Positions 3,155-27,218 of a stretch of 64,000 nucleotides of DNA are shown here, one piece after another. The position numbers were made by a program, and so were the translations under genes. The stretch covers positions 1,289,188 through 1,353,187 of the forward strand of contig OZ244563.1 in NCBI GenBank assembly GCA_965217715.1, read 5' to 3'. The notes beneath the pieces are model-generated. The model was not told the DNA's origin. It searched no databases and was given only the letters and a program-made list of their open reading frames with translations. Numbering within the stretch: the first letter of the stretch is position 1; every line of letters starts with the position of its first letter. Origin of the DNA: Candidatus Poribacteria bacterium (lineage in GTDB: Bacteria; Poribacteria; WGA-4E; WGA-3G).

Positions 3155-4345
3155 TCAACGCCCATACTGTTTCATAATCTGTTTCAACCTGTCCAGTGGA
3201 ATAGCGGGCATTGTCCGACCATTACGTCCCGTCATGGTCGTTGCCATTGTCATTGAATTTATAACTGCCTCCTCAGTTGCCTCAATAGCTGCCTCAAAGA
3301 GTAAACTCAGACGTCTATTAACGACCATCTGAATCTGAAAAGTGCCATTTTCGGTGTTACTCGGAAAGACATTTGCTGTTGAAAACGCAATTACGAACTC
3401 ACCGCTGCTGTCTGTGCTTGGTGTGCCTGTGCGGGCAAGTCCGTGTGTCGCACGAATAGCCAACTGCTTCAACTGACGGTGTGTCAAAGGTGCATCCGTT
3501 GCGATAACAATAATGAATGACCCATCTCTCCCCGGTTTCAATTGATCATCTTCCAACGCTTTACCGACTGGTACACCGTCAATGCGTAATTGATGTTGTC
3601 TTCCACCATTGGAATTTACCAACACACCGACTTTCCATCCGCCTCTGTTCAACGGAAGAACTCGCGAAGCAGTGCCTATACCTGCTTTGAACCCGTAGCA
3701 TCGCATGCCTGTTCCACCCCCGACACACCCTTCTGCTACTGGACCAGATTTTGCCTTTTCGATTGCCTCAATTGCGTGCTCCGGTTTTACATGGAGTCCA
3801 CTGATGTCGTTCAACCCGCCATCATAGCATTCTGCCACAATCGGAAGCACAATGTTGTCATCAGGGTATCGCTTCACAATATATCGCACAACGCCATCGT
3901 GAACAGTACCAACACTCAGCGTATTTGTTAGTAAAATAGGAGATTCAATCCATCCCGCCTGATTAATTCTGGCAATACCGGTGGCTTCACCATTACCGTG
4001 GATGGTATGCGCCGCACCAAACAATCGCACCTTCCAAATATTATCGTGTGGAAGGATTGCGGTAACACCAGTGCGTATTGAATCACCCTCGTTTAGAGTA
4101 ACGTGTCCGACTTTGACACCGGGAACGTCAGTGATAGCATTATGTTTGCCTGTAGGAAGCGTTCCGATATGAATTCCAAGTTCGCGCGCTCGTGCTCTCG
4201 GTGTTTCTGCCTCTTGCGCACCAGTAAAACTTAAAAACTGTATCAAAAAAGCACAGAAAATCAAAAAAACAAGGATTTTAGTGCGTACGGAGAAGGAGAT
4301 AACCACCACATTAGGTTTTTTGATTAACGAAATATATGTGTTCAT
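3155..4345 (-). CDS. P1/DmpA-family aminopeptidase (peptidase S58), probably exported
   Basis: 396-aa ORF with a hydrophobic N-terminal segment (KILVFLIFCAFLIQFLSFTGAQE). DmpA-like blocks are present: ITDVPGVKVGH, TGVTAIL, GGTGM, IIVIATDAPL. The true start could be internal. Confidence 0.75.
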   Translation of the reverse strand: MNTYISLIKKPNVVVISFSVRTKILVFLIFCAFLIQFLSFTGAQEAETPRARARELGIHIGTLPTGKHNAITDVPGVKVGHVTLNEGDSIRTGVTAILPHDNIWKVRLFGAAHTIHGNGEATGIARINQAGWIESPILLTNTLSVGTVHDGVVRYIVKRYPDDNIVLPIVAECYDGGLNDISGLHVKPEHAIEAIEKAKSGPVAEGCVGGGTGMRCYGFKAGIGTASRVLPLNRGGWKVGVLVNSNGGRQHQLRIDGVPVGKALEDDQLKPGRDGSFIIVIATDAPLTHRQLKQLAIRATHGLARTGTPSTDSSGEFVIAFSTANVFPSNTENGTFQIQMVVNRRLSLLFEAAIEATEEAVINSMTMATTMTGRNGRTMPAIPLDRLKQIMKQYGR

Positions 4346-4932
4346 ATCTTGAGCTGCTCCCTATAGATTGTGCGGATATGATTGAAAATAGTGATGTAAG
4401 TAGGGGACCGATAATCTGGATACGTCCATTCCCATGGTTGGAACGTTTTACGATAAAAACGGAGTGTTATCTCTGCATAGATGCCGTCACGGAGATAGAT
4501 ACGGTGCGCGTGGTCCTTGGTTGATGCAAGCACTAGCTTTGCCATGCAGACGTAACCCACATCTAAATTGACAAGCCTCCGTCCGGTATCTTTTTCAGCA
4601 AATGCTTGCTCTACCCCATTCGTCCAGAGTTTTCTGTCTGCCAATGTCCCCGCATCAATTAGGTCTCCAAAACTAATAAACTGACGTTGAAGTACTTTCC
4701 CCATCTCGGCTTCGTAATAATTTGTGCTGGTAAACGGTAAAAGTTCACTGGTATAGTCAATGGGACCAAATTGTTCTGTCAGTTGTTCATAGACAGTTGA
4801 CAGGATCGACGGTTTTGCTGTCAGAACGCCGATAATTGCTTTGACAGGTAGCCGTTCTATAAGTGTTCCCATAATTCCGCGTGCCAGACAATTTAATGAG
4901 GTTTTGTGTAATGTAACGTTAAATTTATACAT
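4342..4932 (-). CDS. DUF4416-family protein
   Basis: 196-aa ORF whose pattern (PF..TNYYE.EMG ... NLD.GY ... LVLAS.KD..HRIYL..GI.AE.TL.F ... PW.WTYPDY) fits my memory of DUF4416. ATGA overlap with the downstream peptidase gene. Confidence 0.55.
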   Translation of the reverse strand: MYKFNVTLHKTSLNCLARGIMGTLIERLPVKAIIGVLTAKPSILSTVYEQLTEQFGPIDYTSELLPFTSTNYYEAEMGKVLQRQFISFGDLIDAGTLADRKLWTNGVEQAFAEKDTGRRLVNLDVGYVCMAKLVLASTKDHAHRIYLRDGIYAEITLRFYRKTFQPWEWTYPDYRSPTYITIFNHIRTIYREQLKI

Positions 4933-4991
4933 CTTTAAAAAAGCAAAATGTACGCCAAATTGAAAAAATATACAATTTTATGTGTTTTTTC

Positions 4992-5021
4992 TTGACATTT
5001 CTGTAAACCTTAATGTATAAT
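4992..5021 (+). promoter_or_regulatory. Near-consensus sigma70-type promoter (TTGACA-N18-TATAAT) facing the rpoB leader
   Basis: TTGACA at 4992-4997 and TATAAT at 5016-5021, with TG immediately 5' of the -10 hexamer. There is no ORF of 60 aa or more on the + strand until rpoB at 5762. Confidence 0.45.
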
Positions 5022-5338
5022 TATACGTTACGCCTTTAAGAAGTTACCAGAGTGTGTCTTAAAGTGACTTTTAGGAAGTATATAACTTCCTCAAAAAATA
5101 GGCAACTGTTTTTGAAATTAAAATGAAGAATGTTCATAATTGTTGGGTGTTGTGCTACAGCACAGATTGTCAGGCACTTTGCATGTTTCTTTTTTAAGAT
5201 GTGTGAGGTCAAGGGTTTTTTCGCGCCTATTACCTGATAGTGAGCGATAAATCGTATGTATCGCATTCACTTCACGAACTGCTGAGTAAGAGACTAAGGC
5301 AACGAAAAAGACATATCCGATTGATCGGTGATACCTTT

Positions 5339-5426
5339 CAACTATGAACCTCAACATTAACAACTATGAACCTCAACATTAACAACTATGAACCTCAACA
5401 TTAACAACTATGAACCTCAACATTAA
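5339..5426. repeat. Perfect tandem repeat, 4 x 22 bp (CAACTATGAACCTCAACATTAA)
   Basis: Read directly: four identical head-to-tail copies at 5339-5360, 5361-5382, 5383-5404 and 5405-5426, about 340 nt upstream of the rpoB start. Confidence 0.95.
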
Positions 5427-5761
5427 AATCATTGATATTCTGTCTTCTGCGAATTCGTATTCTCTTTGAAGAATACCCGAATCCAACACATTGTTAGTTG
5501 TGTGAACCGATATATTGCGAACTATTCGCAATTCAACAGAATGTTTCACTACCCCAAGCAGCATTGCACGTTTAAGCACAGAAACAACAGAAGTCGTGAA
5601 AGCAGACCCAATAACAAGTAATGAGAATTGTTTTCAAGTATCTGTTATCGGTAAGACCTCTTTCTGATAAAAGAAAATATTTCTCTGTAAACGAGTTCGG
5701 TGCAGCAGCCTAATCGGACAAACCTTTCAACCCATCCGCTACCCACGCAAGGTGAAAATTT

Positions 5762-8700
5762 ATGCCCAATACTACTCAAACTAATGGAAGTGCATCAGAG
5801 TTACGACAACGTGTCTCCTTTGCCAAAACTCCATCGGCACTTGAATTGCCCGACTTAATTGAGACCCAAAAGCGATCCTACGCCGCATTTATGCAGCGTT
5901 TTGTCCCAGAAAATGAACGCGAGTCAAAGGGACTTCAGGCACTGTTCAAGGAAGTTTTTCCGATTTATGATTTTAAAGAAACTACAAGTCTGGAATTTGT
6001 CAGTTATACGCTCAGTCCACCGACACATGATCTTTCGGATTGTCAGGCACGCGGACTGAACTATCAGATGCGGTTGCAAGCCCGTCTGATGTGCGTCGAA
6101 CGCGAAAAAGATGAAGACACAGGGCAGACGCGTGTTTTAGATATTACTGAATCTGATGTTTACCTTGGTGATATTCCGTTGATGACTGAGAATGGAACTT
6201 TTATCATCAATGGATCCGAACGTGTAATCGTAAACCAGTTACATCGGTCTCCCGGTGTAATTTTTCTTGACAAATCGCATTCAGCAAGTACACAGAAACT
6301 CCCAACAGGACAGATAATCCCCTACCGCGGGGCATGGATAGAGTTTGAATTCGATTCAAAGGATTGCATCCACGTCCGGTTAGACCGTAAGAAAAAACTA
6401 TTAGCCACCGTGTTATTACGTGCACTCGGTTGGGCAACAGATGCACAAATCCTAAAACTTTTCAGCAGCACAGAGATCGTTCCGATGACACAAGATGTTA
6501 TCGGACGTGTTATCGCTGAACCTGTGGTTGATACCGATTCGGGTGAAGTCCTGCTTGAAGCAAACACAAAGTTGTCTGAAATAGAATTTGATCGACTCAC
6601 CGAGGCTAAGGTGTCAGAGGTAGAAGTGTTGGTGGAATCAGATGAACAAGAACTCCGATATTTGCGGAATACGCTTTCGCGTGACACCGTCAAGGCTTAT
6701 GCAGGAGGGACATTGCAAGAGGGCGCACTGCTTGAGATATTTCGGACCTTAAGACCTGGTGATGCGCCGACACGCGAAGCAGCGACAGCCTGTTTGGAAC
6801 GCCTCTTCTTTGATGGCGCACGTTATGACTTAGGCACCGTTGGAAGATATAAAGTGAATTCAAAATTTAGTGACATGTCTATCTATCTTGATGAATCTGG
6901 TGAGATGCCATCAGAAGAGATAAAGGTGCTTCGGAAAGAAGATATTGCTGCTACCTTGCAACATCTGATGCGCATCCGAAACGGACATCAAGAGGTAGAT
7001 GATTTAGACCATCTCGGCAATCGACGGGTGCGTGTCATTGGGGAACTTCTTGAGAATCAATTCCGTATTGCACTCCTACAAATGCGTCGGGCAGCGCGAG
7101 AGAAATTGAGCACTACTACCGACGCTCAGCTGAAAAATCCGAAGAATTTGGTGAATCCGAAGCCACTCATGATGTCACTCCGAGAGTTTTTCGGGTCTAA
7201 CCAACTTTCCCAATTCATGCAACAGATAAATCCGTTGGATGAACTTACCCATAAACGACGGATTTCAGCGATCGGTCCTGGCGGATTACATCGTGACCGT
7301 GCCACCGCAGCGGTCCGAGATGTCCATCGCACACATTATGGACGTGTCTGTCCTTTAGAAACGCCTGAGGGGCCCTCTATTGGTCTTATCGTCTCCTTAG
7401 CAACTTTTGCGCGTGTTAATCCGTACGGATTTTTAGAAACACCCTACCGCGCCGTTCGTAAAGGCAAAATTACCAAAGATGTTGAATATTTAACAGCAGA
7501 TGCAGAGGACAAATACCACATTGCCCCTGCAGATGCAATCTCTTCTCGTAACAAAGCGAAAACCATACGCACCCGTAAAGGGGAAGAAGTGCATCCGCGC
7601 GAACTTAAAGAGATTGACTACATCGGGATCGCCCCGCAACAAATTGTTGGTGTTTCTGCTGCACTCGTACCTTTTTTAGAGCATGAAGACGCTAACCGTG
7701 CGCTTATGGGTGCTAACCACCAACGACAAGCTGTGCCGCTAATCCGTCCAGAGGCACCATGGGTTGGCACCGGTATGGAACATCGCGCAGCGCGTGATGC
7801 AAATGCCATGGTCATCGCACAACGTGGCGGTATCGTTTCCAGTATTGATGCCGAAGAGGTCCTGATCCGGACTGGTCAAGCACTTCATCTTGAAGAAGGT
7901 GAGCATGGTTTCAGTGAAATGGGGTATGATGTTTATAAACTGAAAAACTTCAAACGGAGTAACAGTGGCACCTGTATCCACCAGCGTCCACGCGTTAATA
8001 TCGGGGATGTTGTTGAAGCAGGCGATGTTATTGCTGATGGCACAGCAACTGAAGGCGGGGAACTTGCACTCGGAAGAAATGTCTTGTGTGCCTATATGCC
8101 GTGGGGCGGACACAACTTTGAGGACTCAATCCTCATCAGCGAGTCGCTTATCAAGGATGATACATTTACCTCTATCCATATTGAAGAATTCGAAGTCGCC
8201 GCGAGGCAGACAAAGATGGGAGACGAAGAGATTACCCGCGATATTCCAAACATGTCTGCCCGTAGTCTTGCACAACTTGATGACGAAGGAATCATTCGGA
8301 TAGGTAGTGTCGTGGGAACCGGCAGTATTCTTGTTGGAAAGATTTCACCGAAAGGTGAAAGTGAATACGGCCCCGAAGAGAAACTGCTACGCGCGATTTT
8401 CGGGGAAAAAGTCAAAGAGGTCAAGGACGCTTCTGCCTACACCCGCCCAGGTGTAGAAGGCGTTGTCATTGACGTAAAGGTTTTCTCTCGCCACGCTACT
8501 CCGAGTAGCGAGCAAACCGCATGGCGACAAGAGGCATTCCGCAAGCAAATTGAACAGACATGGCAGGAGCAGTGTGAACAGGTCTCTGAACGTTTAACGG
8601 AAGAACTACGTGAAACTTTGGTCAACAAAGAACTCGCGTATCCTACGACCTTCGAGAATGATGCAGAAACTGGAGATGAGGACAACGCTGAGTCACCAAA

Positions 8701-9787
8701 GCAGTTAGAAGCAGGTGCCGTGTTGACACGTGAATATCTGGATATACTGTCGCGAAACGAACTTGAAGCACTTCAGATTACAGATGTAGATGCAGTCTCA
8801 TACATCAAGAACCTTCAAGAACTCGCCACCGGTAGGATTAATGCCTATACGCAGGAAAAAGAGGATGCGTTGGAGAAACTCGCTGCAGGCGAAGAGTTGA
8901 AACCAGGGGTTTTGAAACTTGTCAAAGTCTATGTTGCCACTCGTCGTACGATCTCCATCGGCGATAAAATGGCAGGACGCTACGGGAACAAAGGCGTTGT
9001 TGCCAAGATTCTGCCCGAAGAAGATATGCCATATCTACCAGATGGCACCCCTGTTGATATTGTTTTAAATCCTCTTGGTGTGCCTTCTCGGATGAATGTT
9101 GGTCAGATCCTTGAAATACATTTAGGTTTGGCATGCAAGGAACTCAGCTTGCATGTTGCCTCACCTGTATTTGACGGTGCTACAGAGGAAGAGGTTTTCG
9201 ACATGTTGGCGAAAACAGATTTACCTGAAAAAGTTAAACAAACCGGCAAAAGTGTGCTTTACGATGGACGAACTGGGGAACCTTTCGGACAGGAAGTAAC
9301 ATTCGGTTATGTTTATTTCCTCAAGTTAAATCACCTTGTTGCAGATAAAATGCATGCACGTTCAACCGGACCGTACTCCTTGGTGACACAGCAACCATTG
9401 GGTGGAAAGGCACAACACGGAGGACAACGCCTCGGTGAAATGGAAGTTTGGGCATTAGAAGCTTACGGTGCAGCCCACACACTTCAAGAGATGCTGACTA
9501 TTAAGTCGGACGATGTAAAAGGCAGGACTAAAATCTATGAATCTATTGTGAAGGGGCAAAGTCCCTTAAAACCCGGCACCCCTGAATCTTTCAACGTGTT
9601 AGTGAGAGAATTACAAAGTCTGGGCTTAAATGTGGAGTTATCTGAAGGCGATCCTGCGGATGCCGACTCAGAACAAGTAGGTCTACATGAAGCAGGATTC
9701 CCACTCTTGCACACGTTGGATACAATGGATCCCATAGATGAGGAACCACCCTTAAAACTCACTTGGGACACCGATGATGCCGAATAG
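5762..9787 (+). CDS. rpoB: DNA-directed RNA polymerase subunit beta
   Basis: 1341 aa with canonical blocks (FMQRF, GTFIINGSERVIVNQLHRSPGV, QFMQQINPL.ELTHKRRISA.GPGGL, HYGRVCP.ETPEG, NMQRQAVPL-like HQRQAVPL, GDKMAGRYGNKGV, HLVADKMHARSTGPYSLVTQQPLGGKAQHGGQR.GEMEVWALEAYGA). SD AAGGTGA lies upstream. Acidic C-terminal tail. Confidence 0.97.
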   Translation: MPNTTQTNGSASELRQRVSFAKTPSALELPDLIETQKRSYAAFMQRFVPENERESKGLQALFKEVFPIYDFKETTSLEFVSYTLSPPTHDLSDCQARGLNYQMRLQARLMCVEREKDEDTGQTRVLDITESDVYLGDIPLMTENGTFIINGSERVIVNQLHRSPGVIFLDKSHSASTQKLPTGQIIPYRGAWIEFEFDSKDCIHVRLDRKKKLLATVLLRALGWATDAQILKLFSSTEIVPMTQDVIGRVIAEPVVDTDSGEVLLEANTKLSEIEFDRLTEAKVSEVEVLVESDEQELRYLRNTLSRDTVKAYAGGTLQEGALLEIFRTLRPGDAPTREAATACLERLFFDGARYDLGTVGRYKVNSKFSDMSIYLDESGEMPSEEIKVLRKEDIAATLQHLMRIRNGHQEVDDLDHLGNRRVRVIGELLENQFRIALLQMRRAAREKLSTTTDAQLKNPKNLVNPKPLMMSLREFFGSNQLSQFMQQINPLDELTHKRRISAIGPGGLHRDRATAAVRDVHRTHYGRVCPLETPEGPSIGLIVSLATFARVNPYGFLETPYRAVRKGKITKDVEYLTADAEDKYHIAPADAISSRNKAKTIRTRKGEEVHPRELKEIDYIGIAPQQIVGVSAALVPFLEHEDANRALMGANHQRQAVPLIRPEAPWVGTGMEHRAARDANAMVIAQRGGIVSSIDAEEVLIRTGQALHLEEGEHGFSEMGYDVYKLKNFKRSNSGTCIHQRPRVNIGDVVEAGDVIADGTATEGGELALGRNVLCAYMPWGGHNFEDSILISESLIKDDTFTSIHIEEFEVAARQTKMGDEEITRDIPNMSARSLAQLDDEGIIRIGSVVGTGSILVGKISPKGESEYGPEEKLLRAIFGEKVKEVKDASAYTRPGVEGVVIDVKVFSRHATPSSEQTAWRQEAFRKQIEQTWQEQCEQVSERLTEELRETLVNKELAYPTTFENDAETGDEDNAESPKQLEAGAVLTREYLDILSRNELEALQITDVDAVSYIKNLQELATGRINAYTQEKEDALEKLAAGEELKPGVLKLVKVYVATRRTISIGDKMAGRYGNKGVVAKILPEEDMPYLPDGTPVDIVLNPLGVPSRMNVGQILEIHLGLACKELSLHVASPVFDGATEEEVFDMLAKTDLPEKVKQTGKSVLYDGRTGEPFGQEVTFGYVYFLKLNHLVADKMHARSTGPYSLVTQQPLGGKAQHGGQRLGEMEVWALEAYGAAHTLQEMLTIKSDDVKGRTKIYESIVKGQSPLKPGTPESFNVLVRELQSLGLNVELSEGDPADADSEQVGLHEAGFPLLHTLDTMDPIDEEPPLKLTWDTDDAE

Positions 9788-9795
9788 TTTGAAAC

Positions 9796-9887
9796 ATGGC
9801 TATCGGCTATCGGCTATCGGTAAGGGGAACTGATCTACATCACATATCTCTTATACTGAAAGCCGATGGCTAATTGCCGATAGCCAT
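9796..9887. other. Imperfect inverted repeat in the rpoB-rpoC spacer, including 3 x GGCTATC
   Basis: ATGGCTATCGGCTATCGGCTATCGG (9796-9820) pairs with AAGCCGATGGCTAATTGCCGATAGCCAT (9860-9887). The outer 12 nt are perfectly complementary. It ends about 15 nt before the rpoC SD. Confidence 0.6.
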
Positions 9888-9915
9888 TCCTACAACCATT
9901 AAAGGAGCAGAAAGA

Positions 9916-12900
9916 ATGGCAGACAAAGAAAAGCGATTTAATCGTATCTCTATCAGTATCGCCTCGCCTGAACAGATAAAGGATTGGGCAAAACGGACAT
10001 CCTGTAGACGGAGGAATCCAGCAAGCGATACATGGTCGTGTCCCGAGAGAGGCACCTGTGATTGCGGTGAAATCAAAAAGGCAGAAACGATTAACTACCG
10101 TAGTTTTCGCCCTGAAAATCAAGGTTTATTTTGTGAATCGACATTTGGTCCACAAAAAGATTTTGAGTGTAGTTGCGGTAAGTATAAACGGATTAAGCAT
10201 AAAGGGCTTATTTGTGACCAATGCGGGGTTGAGGTGACAAAATCACAAGTTCGAAGAGAACGGCTCGGTTACATCAAACTTGCCACCCCAGTTTCCCATA
10301 TATGGTTTTTTAAAGGGATCCCATCGCGCCTTGGCACGTTCCTTGAACTTGCTTCCCGACAGGTTGAGCGAGTTCTTTACTTTGAAGCGTTTATTGTCAC
10401 AGAGGTCATTGATGACAGTTGTGGTTTGGCTGAAAAAGATATCCTTACAGAAGCAGAAGTGAATGGTAAGCTACGTGAACACCCGGATTCGTTCCGGGCG
10501 GGAACAGGGGCTGAGGCAATTCAGGAACTGCTGCGTAAAATTGATCTGCCAGAAGATGTAAAAAAGTTCACAGAAGAACTTGAGGCAACTTCCAGCCACC
10601 AGAAAAAAGTTAAACTCTCAAAACAACTTAAGATGGTGGCAGGCTTTGACAAAGCAGAGATGCATCCTGATTGGATGATCCTTGATGTGCTGCCTGTGAT
10701 TAGTCCTGATCTTCGACCCTTAGTTTCTCTGGAAGGGGGGAGATTCGCAACGAGTGATCTCAACGATCTATATCGCCGCGTAATTAACCGAAACAACCGA
10801 CTGCAAAAACTTATTGATCTCCGGTCCCCCGAAGTCATCCTCCGAAACGAAAAGCGGATGCTCCAGGAATCCGTTGACGCATTTTTGGATAATGGCAGAC
10901 ACGGACGCCGCGTGACTGGACCTGGCAAACGTGCCCTCAAATCCTTATCCGATATCCTCAAAGGTAAAGTTGGACGTTTTCGACAAAACCTCCTCGGAAA
11001 ACGCGTTGACTATTCAGGTAGAAGTGTTATTGTTGTCGGGCCCGAACTTGAACTCCATCAGTGTGGGGTGCCTAAATTGATGGCTGTTGAACTTTTCAAG
11101 CCATTCATTATTGAGAAACTTTTGACAGCCGGAAAAGTGCAGACTATCAAACGTGGGAAATATCTGACCGAACACGTTACGCCGGACTCACCCATTTGGG
11201 AAGCATTAGAAGAAGTCATCGCTGACCATCCGGTTTTGTTAAATCGTCCGCCGACACTCCACAGGCTCGGAATTCAGGCGTTTATGCCAGTACTTGTTGA
11301 AGGGAAGTCAATTCGGATTCCACCGCTTGTTTGTAAGGCATTCAATGCTGATTTTGATGGTGACCAGATGGCAGTTCATGTACCGCTGTCTATTGAGGCC
11401 CGTACAGAGGCGAAGATGTTACTGCTCAGTAGCGGTAATATTCTCAAACCTTCGCATGGTGAACCGATTACGGTGCCGGAACTTGATATGATTTTAGGCG
11501 CAAGTTTTCTAACAAAGGCACTACCAGAACACCAAGAACGAGCAGCACAACTCCACGCTGCTTATGCTGAAAAATCACAAGATGCCGAATCAGGTAATGT
11601 TTTCGCATCACTGGAAAGTGAAGTATGGGCGAAGCGCCGTTTTACATCTGTGGATGAGGTGACACACGCACACGGGTGTGGAACACTTAAACTACATGAT
11701 TCGGTTCTACTGTTTTTCAAAGAACATCACGAACCGATCCTCACGACCGTCGGACGTGTTATTTTCAACGAGGTTCTTCCACATACAAACGGAACTGCCT
11801 CACTTACTTGGAAAGATGAGGCTACAGGTCTTGAATTGCCATTTTTCAACGAGGAAGCACGTAGCAGACGTTTGTCACAACTCGTCAAACGCTGTTTTAA
11901 CGAACTTGGTACCGCAGAAACTGTTGCGTTGTTAGATCGGTTACAGAAACTTAGTTTTGAGTACGCAACTCGCAGCGGAATTTCTCCTGGTATAAAGGAT
12001 TATTTGATACCGTTTGACAAAAAGGTTATTGTTGAGTTGACAGATAAACGAATTAAGTTTCTTGACGCAGAGCAAATACTTATAGACAGCCTAAATAATA
12101 TAAGTGCCTTGCTTGAAAGTCTCGAAATACGGCAAACCCAGCTTGAAAATCACGAAATACGGCTAGAAGAACTGTCAAAGCGCATGGATAACCTTGATGA
12201 TGAACTTGATGAAGAATTATCAAAGTCTAAGACCATCCGTGATGAGGTAAGTCAACTGTTTCAACATCTCAACGATCTACCAGAAGAATTATCAAAGTCT
12301 AAGACCATCCGTGATGAGGTAAGTCAACTGCTTCAACATCTCAATGATCGGCACAAAGAACTGCTAAAGTTTATTACCAACCTTGATGAAGAACTGCCAA
12401 AGCTCAAGACCATCCGTGATGAGGTAAGTCAACTGCTTCAACATCTCGATGATCTGCCAGAGTTTATGGGTAACCTTGATGATGAACTTGATGAAGAACT
12501 ACCAAAGCTCAAGACCATCCGTGATGAGGTAAAGGAATTACCAAAGGAACATTTTAAGGATCTATCAAAGTTTATGGTCAATCTCAATAAGGCAAGTCAA
12601 CTGCTTGAGCATCTCAATGATCTGCTTAAGCATCATAATGATCTGCCAAAGCGCATGGATAACCTTAATGATGAACTTGATAAAGAACTGCCAAAGCTCA
12701 AGACCATCCGTGATAAGATAAGTGAATTGCCAAAAAAACATCTTAATGATCTGCCAGAGCTTATGGGTAATCTTGATGATGAACGGCAAAAGTTTAAGAT
12801 CATCCGTGATGAGGTGGATCAACTGCTTCAACATCAGTCTATGGGCAATCCTGATGATGAACGGAAAAAGCTTCCTGATGATGAACGGAAAAAGCTTAAG

Positions 12901-15900
12901 ATCATCCGTGATGAGGTGGATCAACTGCTTCAACATCTCAATGATCTGCCAGAGTCTATGGGCAATTTTGATGGGATCAGTAAAGAAATTAAGCGTCTCA
13001 AACCTAAGGTAAGTGATCTGCTTAAGCGTCTCTCACAACAACTTGAGCGTCTTCCACTGCCAACACTTATGGACAATCATACTAAGGTACGTGAACTGTT
13101 TGTGCAGCGTGACGTAGAAGAAGTAGAGAACGAAAAGATTGGGATATGGTTTGTTGCTGTCACAGCAATTGAAGAACAACTGTTCACCGAACTTCCGACG
13201 ACAGAAACGTATTTGGTTGAACAAGATAAAGAGGTAGAAGGGTTTAGTCCGGTGCATCTGATGGCAGATAGTGGTGCCCGCGCGCGCAAAAATCCGTTCA
13301 TACAAATTAGTGCTATCGTCGGATTGAAGTCTAAACAGAGTGGTGAGATTCTGCCTACGCCGATCCAATCCTCCTATCGGGAGGGTTTGGATGTGCTGGA
13401 CTACTTTACCTCAACCTATGGATCACGCAAAGGGTTGGTGGATACCGCTATGAAAACCGCTGCCTCTGGATACCTCACGCGAAAACTGGTCGATGTTGCG
13501 CAAGATGTGTTGATTACCGAAGAGGATTGCGGCACAACGCATGGCATCCTCAAATTTACCACAAACGCTGGCTCCATTGGGTTCAAGATTAGTGGTCGTG
13601 TTACCGTGGAACCTGTAATACATCCCACGACAGAGGAAACACTGGTTGAAAATGAGACATTAATTACACCGCAGATAGCAGAAATTATTGAGGGTGCTGA
13701 AGTTCCGAGCGTTCGAGTCCGATCTATACTCACTTGCGAGGCAGAGAAAGGGGTCTGTGTTGCCTGCTACGGCGCTGATTTGACATCAGGACATCTCGCC
13801 AATGTTGGAGAAGCTATCGGCATCATCGCAGCGCAATCTATCGGCGAACCCGGGACGCAGTTGACAATGCGTACCTTCCATACAGGTGGTGTGGTTGAAG
13901 ATATGAGTGAACGCCTTGCACGTAAGATTATGGCAAAGGCTACAGGGAAAGTGCGGTTTCGTGATTTCATTCCCGGACGCACCGTCCGTGAAGAAGATGG
14001 ACTCTGGATTGTACAACAGGTTGCTGAACACCTTGACCAACCCAAATATAAGGTTAAAACCGTCCAACATCCTGAGTGCAAACTACAACCAGACGAACTC
14101 CTCACAGAGAAACAGCATCAAGAAAATCTTGAGCGCTTTCCTGGGTTTGCGGTAGAACCTATTGCCTATGAAGTTAGCAAAGTGACTCGACCGGATGTCA
14201 TTGAGGCAAACGGCGGAGAAGACTTCCCGTTGCAAGAAGGACAGTATCTAACGGAACACGAATACAACGCCTATTTTCATAGATTCTCACCGTTCCGATG
14301 TTCTGAACCGCACTATCGTGTGAAAAGTGTAAAACATTCGGATACTTTGCTGAAGGAAGGCACATTGCTGACAGAAAGCGAAGCAGAAACATGGCGCGCC
14401 GAAATCCGACCGTTTGACGGCGAATGGGTGTATGAAACGAAAAAGGGTACTATCCTTACCGAAAGTGAATATCTACAGAAACAGAACAGTGTTAAAGCGG
14501 AGATGAAGTATCAGATTCAGAAGGTAACGCATCCGAGTTGCCCGTTTAAGGAAGGGAAACTACTTTCTCCAGAGGAAGAGAGCCAATACCACATGGAACT
14601 CGATGAGCCGGTATATACCGTAACAGAAGTCAGCGATGATATTGACTTAACTGTGGATCAAGAATTGACTGCTGCAGAATTCCGACGTGCACAGGAGATG
14701 TTTAGAACATTTGACGTGCAACGTCCGTCAACGGCGTGGTGTCGTGTTACACAAGTCATGCACCCTGAATGTCCGCTAAAGCCTGACGAACTCATTGAGG
14801 TCGAGAAATTAGAAACGCTTCGAAATAAATTCAGTGGATTTACCGCAGAACGCCTCAAATATCGAATCACTGCTGTGCATCATCCGAATTGTAATCTGGA
14901 ACCTGAAACACTGCTCACCGAAAATGAGAAAAAAGCAATATTGAAGGAATATCCCGGGTTTGAAGTTGATGTCACTAAGAATGAAGAAGGGTTTGAGGTT
15001 GAACGGCTTTACCGCATTATTGCCTCACATCATCCTGAATTTCCTGGTGCTGTTGATGAATACATCACACAATCGGAGTCCAATCGATTCCGGCGAAACT
15101 ATAAGGGATTTGATTTTGAGAAACTTTACCTTCACGTACCTGAAGGGACTGAAACTGAAGAGACTTTGACAGAAGCGGACTACAAGGCACTTGTTAAACA
15201 GCATCGAGACACGGATACGCCCCCACCTAACATAAAACTGGTGTATCACGTCCTTGCCGTTCACCACGCTGAGTGTCCTTTTACTGCTGGACAACGGATT
15301 GATGAGGGTGAATATAAACGCGCACAACGGCTTTATAAAGGCTTTGATACTGAACGGGCTTTTAAGGTAACAGGTGTCGCTGAAACTGATTCCGAGATTG
15401 CTGTAGGCGATATTCTCAGTGATGCCGACTATAAAAAAGAAACGGCTTCCACTTCAAAGAATACCTACCGAGTGGAGAAGGTGATACATCCGAACTGTAC
15501 GCTTACTGTCGATCAAGAGTTGAAAGACTGGGGATATGCAACTGCCCTTGAACAATATACAGGTGTTGATGTAGATGGATTAGTTGAGACTTTCCGAATT
15601 GATGTTGATATTGCAGGTGGCGGGAGTGTGTCACACCTTATTCCCGCAGGTTATTCGGTTTCTGTTAAGGATGAACAACGCGTTAAAGCACAACATTCGT
15701 TAGCAGAATTGCAAGAAAAAACTACCAACCTTGACATTGTTGCTGGGATTCCGCGTGTGACGGAACTTTTTGAAGCGCGGCGTCCAAAACGCGAAGATGC
15801 TGCTGAAATTGCTGAAATCGATGGGTACGTGCAACTTACTGGACAGAAAGCTGGCGTGCCTCAATATCGAATCGTAGACGGTGCTACCAAAAGCCGTCTA

Positions 15901-16569
15901 TATTCTATTCCGGACGAAAAACGCCTACCTGAGGTTGACGATGGCGAGTGGGTCAAAGCTGGGGAACCACTGACAGAAGGATACCTCAACCCACATGACA
16001 TTCTTACCATTGGTAGAACTACCCTTAATGGACATTCTTTGGAAGGTGAAGAAGCACTTTGGGCATACCTTGTGGATGAGGTTCAGACAGTCTATCCGAC
16101 TGACAGCATTAACGATAAGCACGTGGAAGTGATTGTGCGACAGATGCTTCAAAAGATACGCATCCTATCTGTTGGGGACACAAAATTCTACGCGAACGAT
16201 GAAGTCAGCCGACACAAGTTCCACGCCGAAAATAGGCGCGTTGAACAAGATGGCGGCACCCCCGCAACTGGTGAACCTGTCTTACAGAGCATTAGTAAAG
16301 CATCACTCAGCACAGATAGTTTCATCTCTGCAGCGAGTTTCCAACAAACACCCAAGGTCCTCACAGATGCTGCTGTTGAAGGGCAAACAGACCTACTTAC
16401 TGGTTTGAAGGAAAACGTCATCCTTGGACGTCTTATCCCCGCAGGTACGGGGTTCGCTGAGTGGCAGGAACTTCAAGTATCACGTGACGCAATCGCTAAT
16501 CCAGATGCAGAAGAACTACCTGAACCGATTGTTGAACCAGAAGCGATTGCTGAGACGGTTGAGGAATAA
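9916..16569 (+). CDS. rpoC: DNA-directed RNA polymerase subunit beta-prime, giant form (2,217 aa) with lineage-specific insertions
   Basis: Start chosen at the ATG at 9916 (MADKEKRFNRISISIASPEQIKDW), preceded by AAAGGAG. Canonical blocks are present: CSCGKYKR.KHKG.ICD.CGVEV, NADFDGDQMAVHVPLS, MADSGAR, GYLTRKLVDVAQD, GEPGTQLTMRTFHTGG, GIPRVTELFEARRPK, INDKHVEVIVRQM. Three extra segments are described separately. Confidence 0.95.
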   Translation: MADKEKRFNRISISIASPEQIKDWAKRTSCRRRNPASDTWSCPERGTCDCGEIKKAETINYRSFRPENQGLFCESTFGPQKDFECSCGKYKRIKHKGLICDQCGVEVTKSQVRRERLGYIKLATPVSHIWFFKGIPSRLGTFLELASRQVERVLYFEAFIVTEVIDDSCGLAEKDILTEAEVNGKLREHPDSFRAGTGAEAIQELLRKIDLPEDVKKFTEELEATSSHQKKVKLSKQLKMVAGFDKAEMHPDWMILDVLPVISPDLRPLVSLEGGRFATSDLNDLYRRVINRNNRLQKLIDLRSPEVILRNEKRMLQESVDAFLDNGRHGRRVTGPGKRALKSLSDILKGKVGRFRQNLLGKRVDYSGRSVIVVGPELELHQCGVPKLMAVELFKPFIIEKLLTAGKVQTIKRGKYLTEHVTPDSPIWEALEEVIADHPVLLNRPPTLHRLGIQAFMPVLVEGKSIRIPPLVCKAFNADFDGDQMAVHVPLSIEARTEAKMLLLSSGNILKPSHGEPITVPELDMILGASFLTKALPEHQERAAQLHAAYAEKSQDAESGNVFASLESEVWAKRRFTSVDEVTHAHGCGTLKLHDSVLLFFKEHHEPILTTVGRVIFNEVLPHTNGTASLTWKDEATGLELPFFNEEARSRRLSQLVKRCFNELGTAETVALLDRLQKLSFEYATRSGISPGIKDYLIPFDKKVIVELTDKRIKFLDAEQILIDSLNNISALLESLEIRQTQLENHEIRLEELSKRMDNLDDELDEELSKSKTIRDEVSQLFQHLNDLPEELSKSKTIRDEVSQLLQHLNDRHKELLKFITNLDEELPKLKTIRDEVSQLLQHLDDLPEFMGNLDDELDEELPKLKTIRDEVKELPKEHFKDLSKFMVNLNKASQLLEHLNDLLKHHNDLPKRMDNLNDELDKELPKLKTIRDKISELPKKHLNDLPELMGNLDDERQKFKIIRDEVDQLLQHQSMGNPDDERKKLPDDERKKLKIIRDEVDQLLQHLNDLPESMGNFDGISKEIKRLKPKVSDLLKRLSQQLERLPLPTLMDNHTKVRELFVQRDVEEVENEKIGIWFVAVTAIEEQLFTELPTTETYLVEQDKEVEGFSPVHLMADSGARARKNPFIQISAIVGLKSKQSGEILPTPIQSSYREGLDVLDYFTSTYGSRKGLVDTAMKTAASGYLTRKLVDVAQDVLITEEDCGTTHGILKFTTNAGSIGFKISGRVTVEPVIHPTTEETLVENETLITPQIAEIIEGAEVPSVRVRSILTCEAEKGVCVACYGADLTSGHLANVGEAIGIIAAQSIGEPGTQLTMRTFHTGGVVEDMSERLARKIMAKATGKVRFRDFIPGRTVREEDGLWIVQQVAEHLDQPKYKVKTVQHPECKLQPDELLTEKQHQENLERFPGFAVEPIAYEVSKVTRPDVIEANGGEDFPLQEGQYLTEHEYNAYFHRFSPFRCSEPHYRVKSVKHSDTLLKEGTLLTESEAETWRAEIRPFDGEWVYETKKGTILTESEYLQKQNSVKAEMKYQIQKVTHPSCPFKEGKLLSPEEESQYHMELDEPVYTVTEVSDDIDLTVDQELTAAEFRRAQEMFRTFDVQRPSTAWCRVTQVMHPECPLKPDELIEVEKLETLRNKFSGFTAERLKYRITAVHHPNCNLEPETLLTENEKKAILKEYPGFEVDVTKNEEGFEVERLYRIIASHHPEFPGAVDEYITQSESNRFRRNYKGFDFEKLYLHVPEGTETEETLTEADYKALVKQHRDTDTPPPNIKLVYHVLAVHHAECPFTAGQRIDEGEYKRAQRLYKGFDTERAFKVTGVAETDSEIAVGDILSDADYKKETASTSKNTYRVEKVIHPNCTLTVDQELKDWGYATALEQYTGVDVDGLVETFRIDVDIAGGGSVSHLIPAGYSVSVKDEQRVKAQHSLAELQEKTTNLDIVAGIPRVTELFEARRPKREDAAEIAEIDGYVQLTGQKAGVPQYRIVDGATKSRLYSIPDEKRLPEVDDGEWVKAGEPLTEGYLNPHDILTIGRTTLNGHSLEGEEALWAYLVDEVQTVYPTDSINDKHVEVIVRQMLQKIRILSVGDTKFYANDEVSRHKFHAENRRVEQDGGTPATGEPVLQSISKASLSTDSFISAASFQQTPKVLTDAAVEGQTDLLTGLKENVILGRLIPAGTGFAEWQELQVSRDAIANPDAEELPEPIVEPEAIAETVEE
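12070..13130 (+). repeat. In-frame imperfect tandem repeats inside rpoC encoding a ~350-aa coiled-coil-like insertion
   Basis: The motif EL(S/P)K(S/L)K(T/I)IRDEV.QLLQHLNDLPE recurs at least 7 times. At the DNA level, 12211-12282 and 12283-12354 are near-identical 72-bp units. Flanks align to the two beta-prime rim helices (...DKRIKFLDAEQ / ...NEKIGIWFVAVTAIEEQL). Confidence 0.85.
13891..15741 (+). other. ~615-aa insertion in the beta-prime trigger loop made of ~13 degenerate 35-50-aa modules
   Basis: It lies between TFHTGG and IVAGIPRVTELFEARRP. The module signature Y(R/K)V..V.HP.C.L....LLTE.E......F.GF is visible in KYKVKTVQHPECKL, YRVKSVKHSD, YQIQKVTHPSCPF, CRVTQVMHPECPL, YRITAVHHPNCNL, YRIIASHHPEFP, YHVLAVHHAECPF, YRVEKVIHPNCTL and others. 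Confidence 0.8.
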
Positions 16570-20335: not shown

Positions 20336-20396
20336 TAGATAAACCTTAGATAGGATCTATAGTCTTAAGCACTAAGATTTGCGAAGGAGATATTTT

Positions 20397-20867
20397 ATGA
20401 AAGAAACACAGCAACCACCTGCGATTGAGGAGACAGAAGAATCACAACAAACAAAACCGCAGAACTTAGAAGCCTATCTTAGGGACAGTATATTTGGAGA
20501 TGACCTTCGTAATTACGATGAAAAACTTGAAAAATTGACCCAAGAACTTGAAAATGCCCAACAGAGTATTGTTGAAATGGAAACAAGGTTGCTGAAGGAA
20601 GTCGCAGCTGTTAAAGCGCAATACGGTGATATACCAGATAATATAGCACAGCGCGTTGATAATCGTATTGACGAACTTATTAGTCGTAGTGAAAACGATC
20701 TTGAAAAATTGTCAATGCTCATCAATGAGTTTGCAACTGATTTTCAGGCACAAATTGATGCACTTCGTACGGAAACGCAAAAACTCCAAAATGACGGACA
20801 GTCCGACCGACAAGCACTCGCAAATGCTTTGATAACGATCGGCACGCAACTGAAAAAAGAATCATGA
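20397..20867 (+). CDS. Hypothetical coiled-coil protein
   Basis: ATG at 20397 follows GAAGGAG. The sequence is Q/E/K/L-rich and heptad-like (KLEKLTQELENAQQSIVEMETRLLKEV...). ATGA overlap with the downstream CapA-like gene. Confidence 0.5.
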   Translation: MKETQQPPAIEETEESQQTKPQNLEAYLRDSIFGDDLRNYDEKLEKLTQELENAQQSIVEMETRLLKEVAAVKAQYGDIPDNIAQRVDNRIDELISRSENDLEKLSMLINEFATDFQAQIDALRTETQKLQNDGQSDRQALANALITIGTQLKKES

Positions 20868-24959: not shown

Positions 24960-27218
24960 ATGAAAAGCATTAGATGGAGCAGAATCGTTCCTTTCCTCAT
25001 AGTATGTGCCATTGCTGCATATACGACCATGTTAACTACCTCAACTTGTTGGGGAAATACAGAAAGTACCCAAATTGATAACGAGGCAAAAGATCGCGAG
25101 CCTCTTTTTCTAAAAGATATCGCACCTATCCTTGATAAGCGAGGGTGTTCCGCGGGGCTTTGCCATGGGAAATTCGGTGGACAAGGCGGTTTAAATCTAT
25201 CCTTGCTTACGCTGAACCCAGAAAGTGATTATGAACCGATTGTGCATCATAACCGGGGAAGACGGATCAATCTACTTGATCCTGAGCAGAGTCTCCTTTA
25301 TCTAAAACCAACTGGGCAGATTCCGCATGAGGGCGGTGTGAGATTTGGTGCTAACTCTGATGAAGCGGAAACCATTCTTCAATGGATCTCCGCTGGTGCT
25401 CCCTTTTCACCTGATGAACCCCGATTAGAAAAACTTGAAATTGAACCGAGCGAGTCTGCGTTCACTGCTGTTGGTGAAACGAAGCAGCTAAAGGCACTTG
25501 CACATTTTACTGATGGATCAGTGGAAGATGTTACAGAGCAGGTTGTCTATGAATCCAAAGATGAGCCGGTCGCATCTGTCACGGAATCTGGACTCGTAAC
25601 GAGTGAACGTTGGGGTGGAACTGCTATCTTAGCAAGATATTTAGGAGTTGTTTCCTCATCTTTCATAACCGTTCCGAGAGAATCTGATGAAAAACCTTTC
25701 CCGGAAGTTCTAACAAACAATTTCATTGATGAATTCGTTGCGGCGAAACTCAAAAAATTGAATGTCCGTCCGTCTGAACTCTCTTCAGATTCCGAATTCA
25801 TTCGGAGAGTTTATTTGGATACTATCGGAAAATTACCCACATCCGATGAGGTTACGGAATTCCTCGCTGATTCAGACCCAGAAAAACGTTTACGCTTGAT
25901 TGATACGTTGATGGAAACAGAAGAGTGGGTTAACCTGCGAACATTGAAATTAGCTGATATGTTGCGCGTACATCCACGGCGGTTAGGAAATGGTGAATTC
26001 GGTGAAACACCTGCCACGCTATTCCATGAGTTTATATGGAATTCTGTCGCCGAAAATAAACCGTATGACCAGTTTGTATACGACATTTTAACTGCCCGCG
26101 GCAGTACATATCTGCATGGACCCGCTAACTATTATCGGATTGAGCGCCAACCTGCTGGCAGAGCTGAAACCACAGCACAAGTATTTCTCGGCATCCGTCT
26201 CAGTTGCGCCCGATGCCATAAACATCCTTTTGATGAGTGGACAACTGATGATTATTGGAACTTTGCTGCATTCACAGGCAAGGTTAACACGCGCGGAGGC
26301 GAACTATACCAAGAACTGGTCGTCTACCACAACCCAGCTGGACGCGTCATCAACCAATCTGTCCAAGGCAACCGTGGACAGATCGCACAACCCACATTCC
26401 TTGGTGGAGAAACGCTTCCAGAGGCGCATAGAGCAGATGCGATTAAGCATCTCGCAGACTGGATGACCGCGGATTCTAATCCATATTTCGCAAAAGCGAC
26501 CGTCAACCGTCTATGGAGTTACTATTTCGGCAGAGGGGTTGTTGACCCTGTTGACGATATGCGCGCTACTACTCCCGCAAGTGTTGAAGGGCTCTTAGAA
26601 GCGTTGGCGGAAGAGTTTGTTCGAAGCGGGTATGATACCAAACATATTATAAAATTGATGCTTAATTCCCGAACCTATCAGCTTTCCGCAGCACCGAATG
26701 AAACGAATGAATTAGATGATAGATTCTTCTCTCGCTTCATGCCTCGTCCCTTGATGGCGCAAGTGTTGCTTGATGTCTTAAATGATGTTACAGGATCATC
26801 GGAGAAATATGGAAGGCTTCCGAAAGGTACGCGGGTTATTGAGCTGCCGCTCCCTGTGAATTCCCGTTTTCTTAATCTGTTTGGCCGTTCAGATAGGGAG
26901 TTCTTGGGCAACTTAGACCCTTTACTTGAACCAACGCTCACACAGGCACTACACATCATCAACTCTCGTTATGTGAACGACAAGTTGAAAAAAAGCGATG
27001 GCACAATTACCCAGCTTCTTGAGCCAAAGTCTGGGGAAAAGTTGCAACCGGCAGAATTGGTTAAGGAACTGTATTTAATGACTTTGAGTCGTCATCCCAC
27101 CGAAGCGGAACTTGAAACGGCTATAACACATCTTGCCGATAGTTCCACAAGGCGCGAAGACACAGAAGACCTACTCTGGGCACTGATTTCATCCCGCTCT
27201 TTCCTTTTCAATCGGTAA
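24960..27218 (+). CDS. DUF1549/DUF1553 domain protein with an N-terminal cytochrome-like CxxCH segment and an Ig-like domain
   Basis: Signal anchor, then CSAGLCHGKFGGQGGLNLS, a Big_2-like segment (KQLKALAHFTDGSVEDVTEQV), DUF1549-type RRVYLDTIGKLPT and RLSCARCHKHPFDEWTTDDYW, and DUF1553-type C-terminal blocks (NRLWSYYFGRG, LWALISSRSFLFNR). Confidence 0.8.
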   Translation: MKSIRWSRIVPFLIVCAIAAYTTMLTTSTCWGNTESTQIDNEAKDREPLFLKDIAPILDKRGCSAGLCHGKFGGQGGLNLSLLTLNPESDYEPIVHHNRGRRINLLDPEQSLLYLKPTGQIPHEGGVRFGANSDEAETILQWISAGAPFSPDEPRLEKLEIEPSESAFTAVGETKQLKALAHFTDGSVEDVTEQVVYESKDEPVASVTESGLVTSERWGGTAILARYLGVVSSSFITVPRESDEKPFPEVLTNNFIDEFVAAKLKKLNVRPSELSSDSEFIRRVYLDTIGKLPTSDEVTEFLADSDPEKRLRLIDTLMETEEWVNLRTLKLADMLRVHPRRLGNGEFGETPATLFHEFIWNSVAENKPYDQFVYDILTARGSTYLHGPANYYRIERQPAGRAETTAQVFLGIRLSCARCHKHPFDEWTTDDYWNFAAFTGKVNTRGGELYQELVVYHNPAGRVINQSVQGNRGQIAQPTFLGGETLPEAHRADAIKHLADWMTADSNPYFAKATVNRLWSYYFGRGVVDPVDDMRATTPASVEGLLEALAEEFVRSGYDTKHIIKLMLNSRTYQLSAAPNETNELDDRFFSRFMPRPLMAQVLLDVLNDVTGSSEKYGRLPKGTRVIELPLPVNSRFLNLFGRSDREFLGNLDPLLEPTLTQALHIINSRYVNDKLKKSDGTITQLLEPKSGEKLQPAELVKELYLMTLSRHPTEAELETAITHLADSSTRREDTEDLLWALISSRSFLFNR

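Follow-up and report, generated by a model that had tools for sequence, protein, structure and literature searches.

A coiled-coil-type helical insert, variable among close relatives, at the rim-helix tip of a poribacterial RNA polymerase beta-prime subunit

We analysed a stretch of 64,000 nucleotides (nt) from Candidatus Poribacteria bacterium (assembly GCA_965217715.1, contig OZ244563.1, positions 1,289,188 to 1,353,187 of the forward strand), called the window below, and within it the gene rpoC, which encodes the beta-prime subunit of RNA polymerase. In this subunit the tip loop between the two rim helices of the secondary channel is replaced by 346 amino acids (aa). We consider it highly probable (about 0.9) that these residues are an accessory, lineage-specific domain of a Poribacteria-type (sponge- or coral-associated) polymerase, composed of coiled-coil-type amphipathic helices, and that this domain evolves fast and is dispensable.

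The position of the insert follows from phmmer alignments to the E. coli subunit, in which P647, F668, E677, N680 and W686 correspond to P699, Q720, E1069, N1072 and W1078 of the window protein (residue n begins at nt 9916+3(n−1); Table 1). By these equivalences, residues 721–1066 replace the six residues Q669–T674 of the E. coli tip loop, and in relatives without the insert the same site is occupied by the four residues NLEA or DLEP. The flanking helices and their position in the fold are those of the canonical rim helices (about residues 649–703 in E. coli, and likewise in Thermus and cyanobacteria), with equivalents of P647, E677, N680 and W686, but in the canonical form the tip loop has about 6–8 residues. 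A preliminary description of the sequence had proposed an insertion of about 350 aa at this tip; the alignments to E. coli and to short-tip relatives place it exactly there, and the coordinates and flanking alignment given at that time were right to within a few residues. Just 3' of the insert the window keeps the equivalents of E677 and N680; in the known system, the substitution E677G abolishes DksA binding and yields a "DksA-blind" polymerase (PMC6488371).

Measured from anchor to anchor, the rim segment comprises 421 aa in the window and 511 and 493 aa in the other two carriers of the insert, against 78 aa in insert-less relatives. Between the same anchors there are 67–95 aa (median 73) in 80 beta-prime proteins from many phyla, drawn from at least 80 loci among the matches listed for the motif DFDGDQM, which are 48–53% identical and had been gathered for another purpose. 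An intein or another self-splicing or mobile insert was rejected as an identity: the junctions fall between ...AEQ and ILIDS... and between ...VQRDV and EEVEN..., and Pfam matches to Hint or endonuclease domains are absent.

Table 1. Coordinates of the features in the window, and length of the rim segment between GISPGI and GFSPVH in seven members of the lineage
Feature	Position (nt)	Strand	Length	Basis
rpoC, RNA polymerase beta-prime	9916..16569	+	2217 aa	Translation, Pfam, PDB matches, N-terminus of P0128
Rim helix 1, residues 699–720 (E. coli P647–F668)	12010..12075	+		phmmer alignments; AlphaFold predicted local distance difference test (pLDDT) about 80
Insert, residues 721–1066	12076..13113	+	346 aa	Alignments with P0001–P0005, L084, L082, P0129
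Insert N-terminal part, non-repeated, residues 721–765	12076..12210	+		Predicted unbroken continuation of rim helix 1; continuous heptad register
Tandem-repeat core, units U1–U7, residues 766–1012	12211..12951	+		Tandem Repeats Finder, periods 72 and 105 nt
24-nt tandem duplication, PDDERKKL twice	12849..12897	+		Tandem Repeats Finder, 2.0 copies, 100% matches
Insert C-terminal part, non-repeated, residues 1013–1066	12952..13113	+		Collinear with C-terminal ends of L083 and P0128 inserts
Rim helix 2, residues 1067–1095, including E1069 and N1072	13114..13200	+		Alignments to E. coli beta-prime
rpoB	5762..9787	+	1341 aa	Translation; immediately 5' of rpoC, canonical rpoBC operon
GISPGI–GFSPVH segment, window			415 aa	
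GISPGI–GFSPVH segment, L083			505 aa	
GISPGI–GFSPVH segment, P0128			487 aa	
GISPGI–GFSPVH segment, L084			72 aa	
GISPGI–GFSPVH segment, L082			72 aa	
GISPGI–GFSPVH segment, P0129			72 aa	
GISPGI–GFSPVH segment, P0130			91 aa	

Relatives were collected by a scan of Joint Genome Institute (JGI) and whole-genome shotgun (WGS) metagenomes with the lineage motif MA[DE]SGARARK[ND]PF, which gave four loci, and by protein searches. A search with the flanks only returned mostly short fragments, but gave P0010, which carries the NCBI name Candidatus Poribacteria bacterium, and then P0128, a full-length beta-prime of 2283 aa in the same cluster; a search with the insert and its flanks gave five matches to the flanks, low-complexity words dominating the candidates. 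At the same rim-tip site, L083 has 433 and P0128 415 additional residues, and P0128 is identical in two Tara assemblies, with the gene order of the window.

Judged by N-terminal identity, the window pairs with L084 (96.5%) and L082 with L083 (95.7%), with about 92% across these pairs; both pairs are 89–92% identical to P0128, 81% to P0129 and 71% to P0130. Metagenomes of the sponges Petrosia ficiformis and Sarcotragus foetidus are the sources of L084 and L082, respectively (PMC5099237). Over 2079 nt, 137 quartet sites group the window with L084 and L082 with L083, against 19 and 18 sites for the alternative groupings. Neither L084, the closest relative of the window, nor L082, the sister of the carrier L083, has the insert, and the tip of both looks ancestral, so that from the quartet counts and segment lengths each sister pair consists of one carrier and one non-carrier. 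Variation between strains had been foreseen, and it goes further than was guessed, extending to relatives without the insert and to non-repetitive versions of 415–433 aa. Absence of any insertion from close relatives had been named as a finding that would speak against the preliminary description: the closest relative does lack it, but other relatives have a homologous insert. A separate insertion of about 19 aa, ERADPRKIHPKIDAYGAEIRDKT, lies between rim helix 2 and GFSPVH in the deeper-branching P0130, P0002–P0004 and L081, and the sub-clade of the window is without it.

We read the three inserts as one family. Those of L083 and P0128 align with a Smith–Waterman z of 33 against shuffles, and that of the window aligns with either at z of about 8.3 (BLASTP identity 28%, E = 1e-8), although a common periodicity may account for part of a z of 8 when the control is shuffled residues. 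The last 120 aa of the insert give a z of about 6, and in the alignment of the three inserts (A3) the C-terminal ends are collinear, with LP, D, (I/F)K.L.P and (D/E)L columns in common. The insertion is lineage-specific, being homologous among the three carriers, yet it is not fixed in the lineage. Outside the clade, phmmer found no homologue of the insert among 1.84 billion representative proteins, and a protein search with A3 found nothing. Two weak matches from the exhaustive phmmer search, a tetratricopeptide repeat (TPR)-like protein and a repetitive coiled coil, were judged to reflect compositional or periodic similarity and not homology; the former (E = 4.7e-6) is a 42-aa-repeat protein having L(G/N)DLP in common with the insert. 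A TPR or alpha-solenoid identity was rejected, the TPR family being absent from the Pfam scan of beta-prime.

The core of the window insert consists of seven motif units with the pattern EELxKxK(T/I)IRDEVxQLLQHLNDLP..., in which K[TI]IRD[EK][VI] recurs at residues 772, 796, 831, 866, 929, 961 and 995 (spacings of 24, 35, 35, 63, 32 and 34 aa), in line with the earlier count of at least seven imperfect repeats. Tandem Repeats Finder reports an array with a period of 72 nt at 12211–12349 (97% matches, score 264) and one with a period of 105 nt at 12283–12532 (84% matches, score 338). The stretches 12211–12282 and 12283–12354, which had been called near-identical, agree at 92% of their 72 nt, their mismatches gathering towards the 3' end, and the perfect 24-nt duplication at PDDERKKL is the most recent slippage event of the insert. 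Pairwise nucleotide identity among U1–U7 is 60–92%; the differences are mostly nonsynonymous, in a ratio of about 3:1, and between U6 and U7 the differing codons comprise 0 synonymous and 7 nonsynonymous changes. The arrays and the comparison of units confirm the proposed recent expansion, in that part of the insert has grown by recent tandem duplication. Repeats at the DNA level occur only in the insert of the window and not in those of L083 and P0128, which indicates that the insert is old and that only recently did tandem units expand locally inside it.

The residues of the insert include 19% Leu, 22.6% Asp+Glu, 16.5% Lys+Arg and 1.4% Gly. Its periodicity indicates coiled-coil-type helices: the spectrum of the hydrophobic pattern over the whole 400-residue segment peaks once, at exactly 3.50 residues (z = 20.8), and neither 3.6 nor any low harmonic of the 35-aa repeat gives a peak. 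The insert contains 15 prolines at recurring DLPE/ELPK positions, and heptad registers remain constant over 60–75 residues, straight through prolines. Of the 28-residue spans of the insert, 73% in the window, 71% in L083 and 52% in P0128 score above the 95th percentile of shuffles, compared with 10% in a globular part of the window protein, which served as a control; the best local period is 3.45–3.50 in all three versions.

Two AlphaFold runs gave all-helical DSSP assignments, with a mean pLDDT of 53–55, predicted template modelling scores (pTM) of 0.27 and 0.23 and several predicted helix breaks. In both runs residues 702–787 form a DSSP helix, of which residues ~706–766 reach a pLDDT of 76–83 in the second run. 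Rim helix 1 is predicted to run unbroken to about residue 786 as a helix of about 85 residues, at least about 65 of them past the normal tip, and this extension is the sole well-supported element of the models (pLDDT about 80). The strong heptad-type periodicity and the all-helix assignment agree with the coiled-coil character proposed in the preliminary description, and the label "coiled-coil-type helical domain" is supported. Of the "greatly elongated" coiled coil the heptad-type helices stand, but a single two-stranded arm is not established, given the 15 prolines, the pTM of 0.23–0.27 and the helix breaks; a multi-helix bundle is as possible as one very long two-stranded coiled coil.

Divergence in excess of the surroundings is limited to the hairpin, where nucleotide identity falls to 63–73% between the window and L084 (88–95% in adjacent sequence) and to 52–73% between L082 and L083 (82–88% adjacent). 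The short tips of L084 and L082 are alike (70–77% nt identity; 19/27 residues in rim helix 1) and agree with the outgroup P0129 at 15–16 of the 27 residues. Carriers agree with their own sisters at 6–12 of these residues and with each other at 3–8. Because the short tips resemble each other and the outgroup while the carriers diverge, they appear ancestral and vertically inherited. Rim helix 1 is conserved in the short forms and diverged in the carriers, as would fit a changed constraint on the surface used for docking.

On both sides of the hairpin the window is closest to L084, and a check for a simple mosaic origin of its flanks showed no sign of one. The carriers may have taken over hairpin and insert together through replacement of their alleles by those of relatives not sampled here, or the two classes of allele may both be old; two independent precise deletions, each recreating an ancestral-looking tip, seem less likely. 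Rim helix 1 sites grouping by insert state number 8, against 4 for the species topology, a hint only at such tiny counts. The rapid change proceeds by replication slippage or unequal recombination in the window lineage and by gain, loss or allele replacement among close relatives.

Gre and DksA are described as binding primarily to the rim helix (PMC10895346), and TraR homologues of phages and plasmids also bind the rim helices (PMC9239242). From the location of the insert at this factor-docking platform of the secondary channel we infer a steric effect: the insert would remodel or shield the platform on which Gre, DksA and TraR-type factors dock, and it may touch the trigger-loop insert of 618 aa next to it. 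In this way it would adjust how freely the secondary channel can be entered, and not catalysis as such. The gating or recruiting of secondary-channel factors suggested in the preliminary description is conjectural. We put forward such remodelling or shielding as the most likely effect, but tentatively, at somewhat under even odds. Selection would preserve the insert as a folded arm or bundle of helices. That three very diverged versions keep 346–433 residues and their helical periodicity, with intermediates unseen, speaks for such maintenance and against drift. Since sister lineages manage without the insert, the polymerase as such can function in its absence; it counts as accessory because the sister enzymes lack it while having the same trigger-loop insert.

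The trigger-loop insert (13891–15744, rpoC residues 1326–1943) lies between MRTFHTGG and GIPRVTELFEAR and is made of modules of about 60–75 aa beginning with Y(K/R)V..V.HP.C; relatives without the rim insert have 618–647 aa at this place. Searches with it gave no Pfam matches and no PDB sequence matches at E ≤ 1. In size it equals the cyanobacterial Si3, but the rpoC of the window is unsplit. In E. coli and cyanobacteria, trigger-loop inserts pack next to the place that the rim insert occupies. The two inserts are uncoupled, the one in the trigger loop being present in L084, which has none at the rim.

The cyanobacterial Si3 would be comparable in effect, though differently built, as its tail/fin shields the Gre/DksA docking site on the rim helix (PMC10895346, PMC10120043). 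In both cases a large accessory mass stands at the rim helix, and the poribacterial enzyme has a trigger-loop insert as well; the cyanobacterial mass, however, is formed by beta-barrel (SBHM) domains of the trigger-loop insert, whereas that of the window is a helical domain arising from the rim helix itself. Gre, DksA and TraR are likewise coiled-coil and dock on the rim helices at the same place, but they are separate proteins with conserved tips, whereas the insert has no sequence match to them and is a covalent part of beta-prime.

Several observations weigh against a selected steric role. Confidence in the AlphaFold models is low, so that they do not fix the shape or direction of the arm, and Foldseek searches of the PDB with models of the insert returned only generic long-helix proteins (E > 0.9). 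The equivalents of E677 and N680 are kept in most carriers, and canonical docking may still occur; greA and dksA were found neither in the window nor in the related loci, the rest of the genome not being covered. The insert is present or absent among near relatives, so viability does not need it, and the unit differences lie roughly near a neutral ratio, as though residue identity were little constrained. The last two points can also be read to mean that the insert is a near-neutral decoration, a slippage-prone low-complexity helical segment tolerated at an exposed permissive loop and without a function of its own, a possibility that we regard as rather unlikely. It would suit closest relatives that lack the insert with no compensation visible elsewhere in the gene, the 3:1 excess of nonsynonymous differences and the fresh duplications, as well as carriers' inserts that are 28% identical against about 92% in the flanks, and the search of 1.84 billion representative proteins that revealed no homologue outside the clade. 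Less easily reconciled with it are the bimodal sizes (72 aa against 415–505 aa, with no intermediates in the seven lineage members) and the inserts of two carriers, which are old and non-repetitive and still have coiled-coil periodicity. Moreover, bacterial deletion bias should remove useless DNA from a highly expressed essential gene, and would be expected to erode 1–1.3 kb of it here.

A role as a shield in an arms race is improbable in our estimation. Here rim helix 1 and the insert would form a hypervariable cassette on an otherwise ultra-conserved enzyme, passed by homologous recombination among co-resident sponge symbionts, kept as a polymorphism of both presence and sequence, and selected for blocking phage or plasmid channel binders (TraR/Orf73-like) or channel-targeting inhibitors. 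The presence or absence of the insert is at odds with the species topology twice, excess divergence is found only in the hairpin (52–73% nt identity against 82–95% in the adjacent flanks), and 8 rim helix 1 sites against 4 follow insert state, a weak grouping, while the short tips look ancestral and vertically inherited; in addition, TraR homologues of phages and plasmids bind the rim helices (PMC9239242) and defence features are enriched in sponge metagenomes (PMC5099237). Yet the donor allele is absent from the sampled sequences, directly outside the hairpin the window is nearest to L084, very few sites are counted in rim helix 1, and no phage factor is known for these hosts. Far less plausible is a built-in mimic of Gre or DksA, in which part of the acidic coiled coil would fold into the secondary channel and act in cis on the active site. 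A strongly acidic (Asp+Glu 22.6%) coiled-coil-type sequence is indeed tethered at the channel rim, and cyanobacterial polymerases with giant trigger-loop inserts can do without trans-acting channel factors (PMC10895346). A GreA/GreB or DksA/TraR identity was rejected, however, as beta-prime has no such Pfam match and the signature is absent from the window; furthermore, the three versions have no acidic-tip motif in common and almost no conserved residues, which would be unexpected in a segment reaching the active site, and sister enzymes lack the insert. An assembly artefact, by a chimeric join or a mis-assembled repeat, is just as improbable: repeats of 72–105 nt at 84–97% identity can be mis-counted by short-read assemblers, and the exact beta-prime protein of the window has no record in a large gene-position collection, but the coding frame is open across the 1038 nt of the insert (the remaining two forward frames contain 11 and 74 stops), independent assemblies have homologous inserts at precisely this site, one of which recurs in identical form in two samples, and the unique N- and C-terminal parts are collinear with their homologues. 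With respect to assembly, only the copy number of U1–U7 is open to doubt.

Among known lineage-specific insertions of RNA polymerase, SI3 of E. coli beta-prime, SI1 and SI2 of beta, and beta-prime-i1 of the Mycobacterium tuberculosis enzyme (MtbRNAP) are likewise lineage-restricted surface domains placed in loops, and the mycobacterial clamp insert beta-prime-i1 is also a long helical hairpin. The insert described here differs in standing at another site, the rim-helix tip, and in being internally repetitive in one carrier; the known insertions are fixed across whole phyla or classes, whereas the rim insert is present or absent among sequences that are 92–96% identical. To our knowledge no rim-helix insertion has been catalogued before, a statement made without comparison to the catalogue of Lane and Darst (2010), and nothing comparable stands among the 80 beta-primes surveyed. 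Tandem-repeat coiled coils with slippage-driven length variation are familiar from the M-like surface proteins of streptococci, where immune selection acts on surface and virulence proteins. The window insert is similar in having units that keep the heptad phase (7 divides both 35 and 63 aa), near-identical DNA units and a rapid turnover; unlike the M-like proteins, it sits in an essential core enzyme. What sets the rim insert apart is its apparently new site, its presence or absence among sequences of 92–96% identity and its ongoing tandem expansion in one carrier.

The gene that carries the insert is the housekeeping, syntenic rpoB–rpoC copy. It is held by the open reading frame (ORF) 9874–16569, its true start being the ATG at 9916, in agreement with the N-terminus of P0128. 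The product contains Rpb1 domains 1–5 in order (PF04997, PF00623, PF04983, PF05000, PF04998) and the catalytic motif NADFDGD, as FNADFDGDQM; its top PDB matches are all bacterial beta-prime (E = 0), and the stretches without counterpart in solved structures are residues ~716–1071 and the trigger-loop insert. The Tara loci L085/L086 also have an rpoB of 1341 aa and, as in the window, the order DUF4416, peptidase S58, rpoB, rpoC. No second rpoC is visible within the window, which is one window of the genome. In the region 5' of rpoB (3155–5762), rplJ and rplL are not found; a minus-strand DUF4416 protein and a peptidase S58 (DmpA-like) are encoded there instead.

An Rfam scan of the window gave zero matches. 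A 162-aa ORF at 20379–20867 (+) has a weak match to Apolipoprotein A1/A4/E-type amphipathic-helix repeats (E = 3.5e-4, well short of the curated cut-off). The gene at 24960–27218 (+) encodes 752 aa that include PSCyt2 (DUF1549), PSD1 (DUF1553) and Big_2 domains; the PSCyt2/PSD1 pairing is typical of Planctomycetes-like and poribacterial genomes, with which this protein is consistent. The protein encoded at 47121–50078 (+) has 985 aa, numerous TPR repeats and, close to its C-terminus, a weak HSDR_N-like match; a UPF0236-family ORF follows at 50184–51482 (+).

Taken together, these results concern a platform that is otherwise kept nearly constant: the rim helices are the common landing pad of Gre factors, DksA with guanosine tetraphosphate (ppGpp) and TraR-like proteins, and their length varies by fewer than 30 residues in the 80 beta-primes among the matches listed. 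Near-identical polymerases that either lack an insert or carry one of three inserts of 350–430 residues provide a natural experiment on how much this platform tolerates and on channel access. If the exchange and arms-race reading were true, the insert would represent a new kind of host protection of the transcription machinery, a defence-like adaptation in the RNA polymerase core. In either case, an essential, slowly evolving enzyme can bear a fast-evolving, slippage-prone module.

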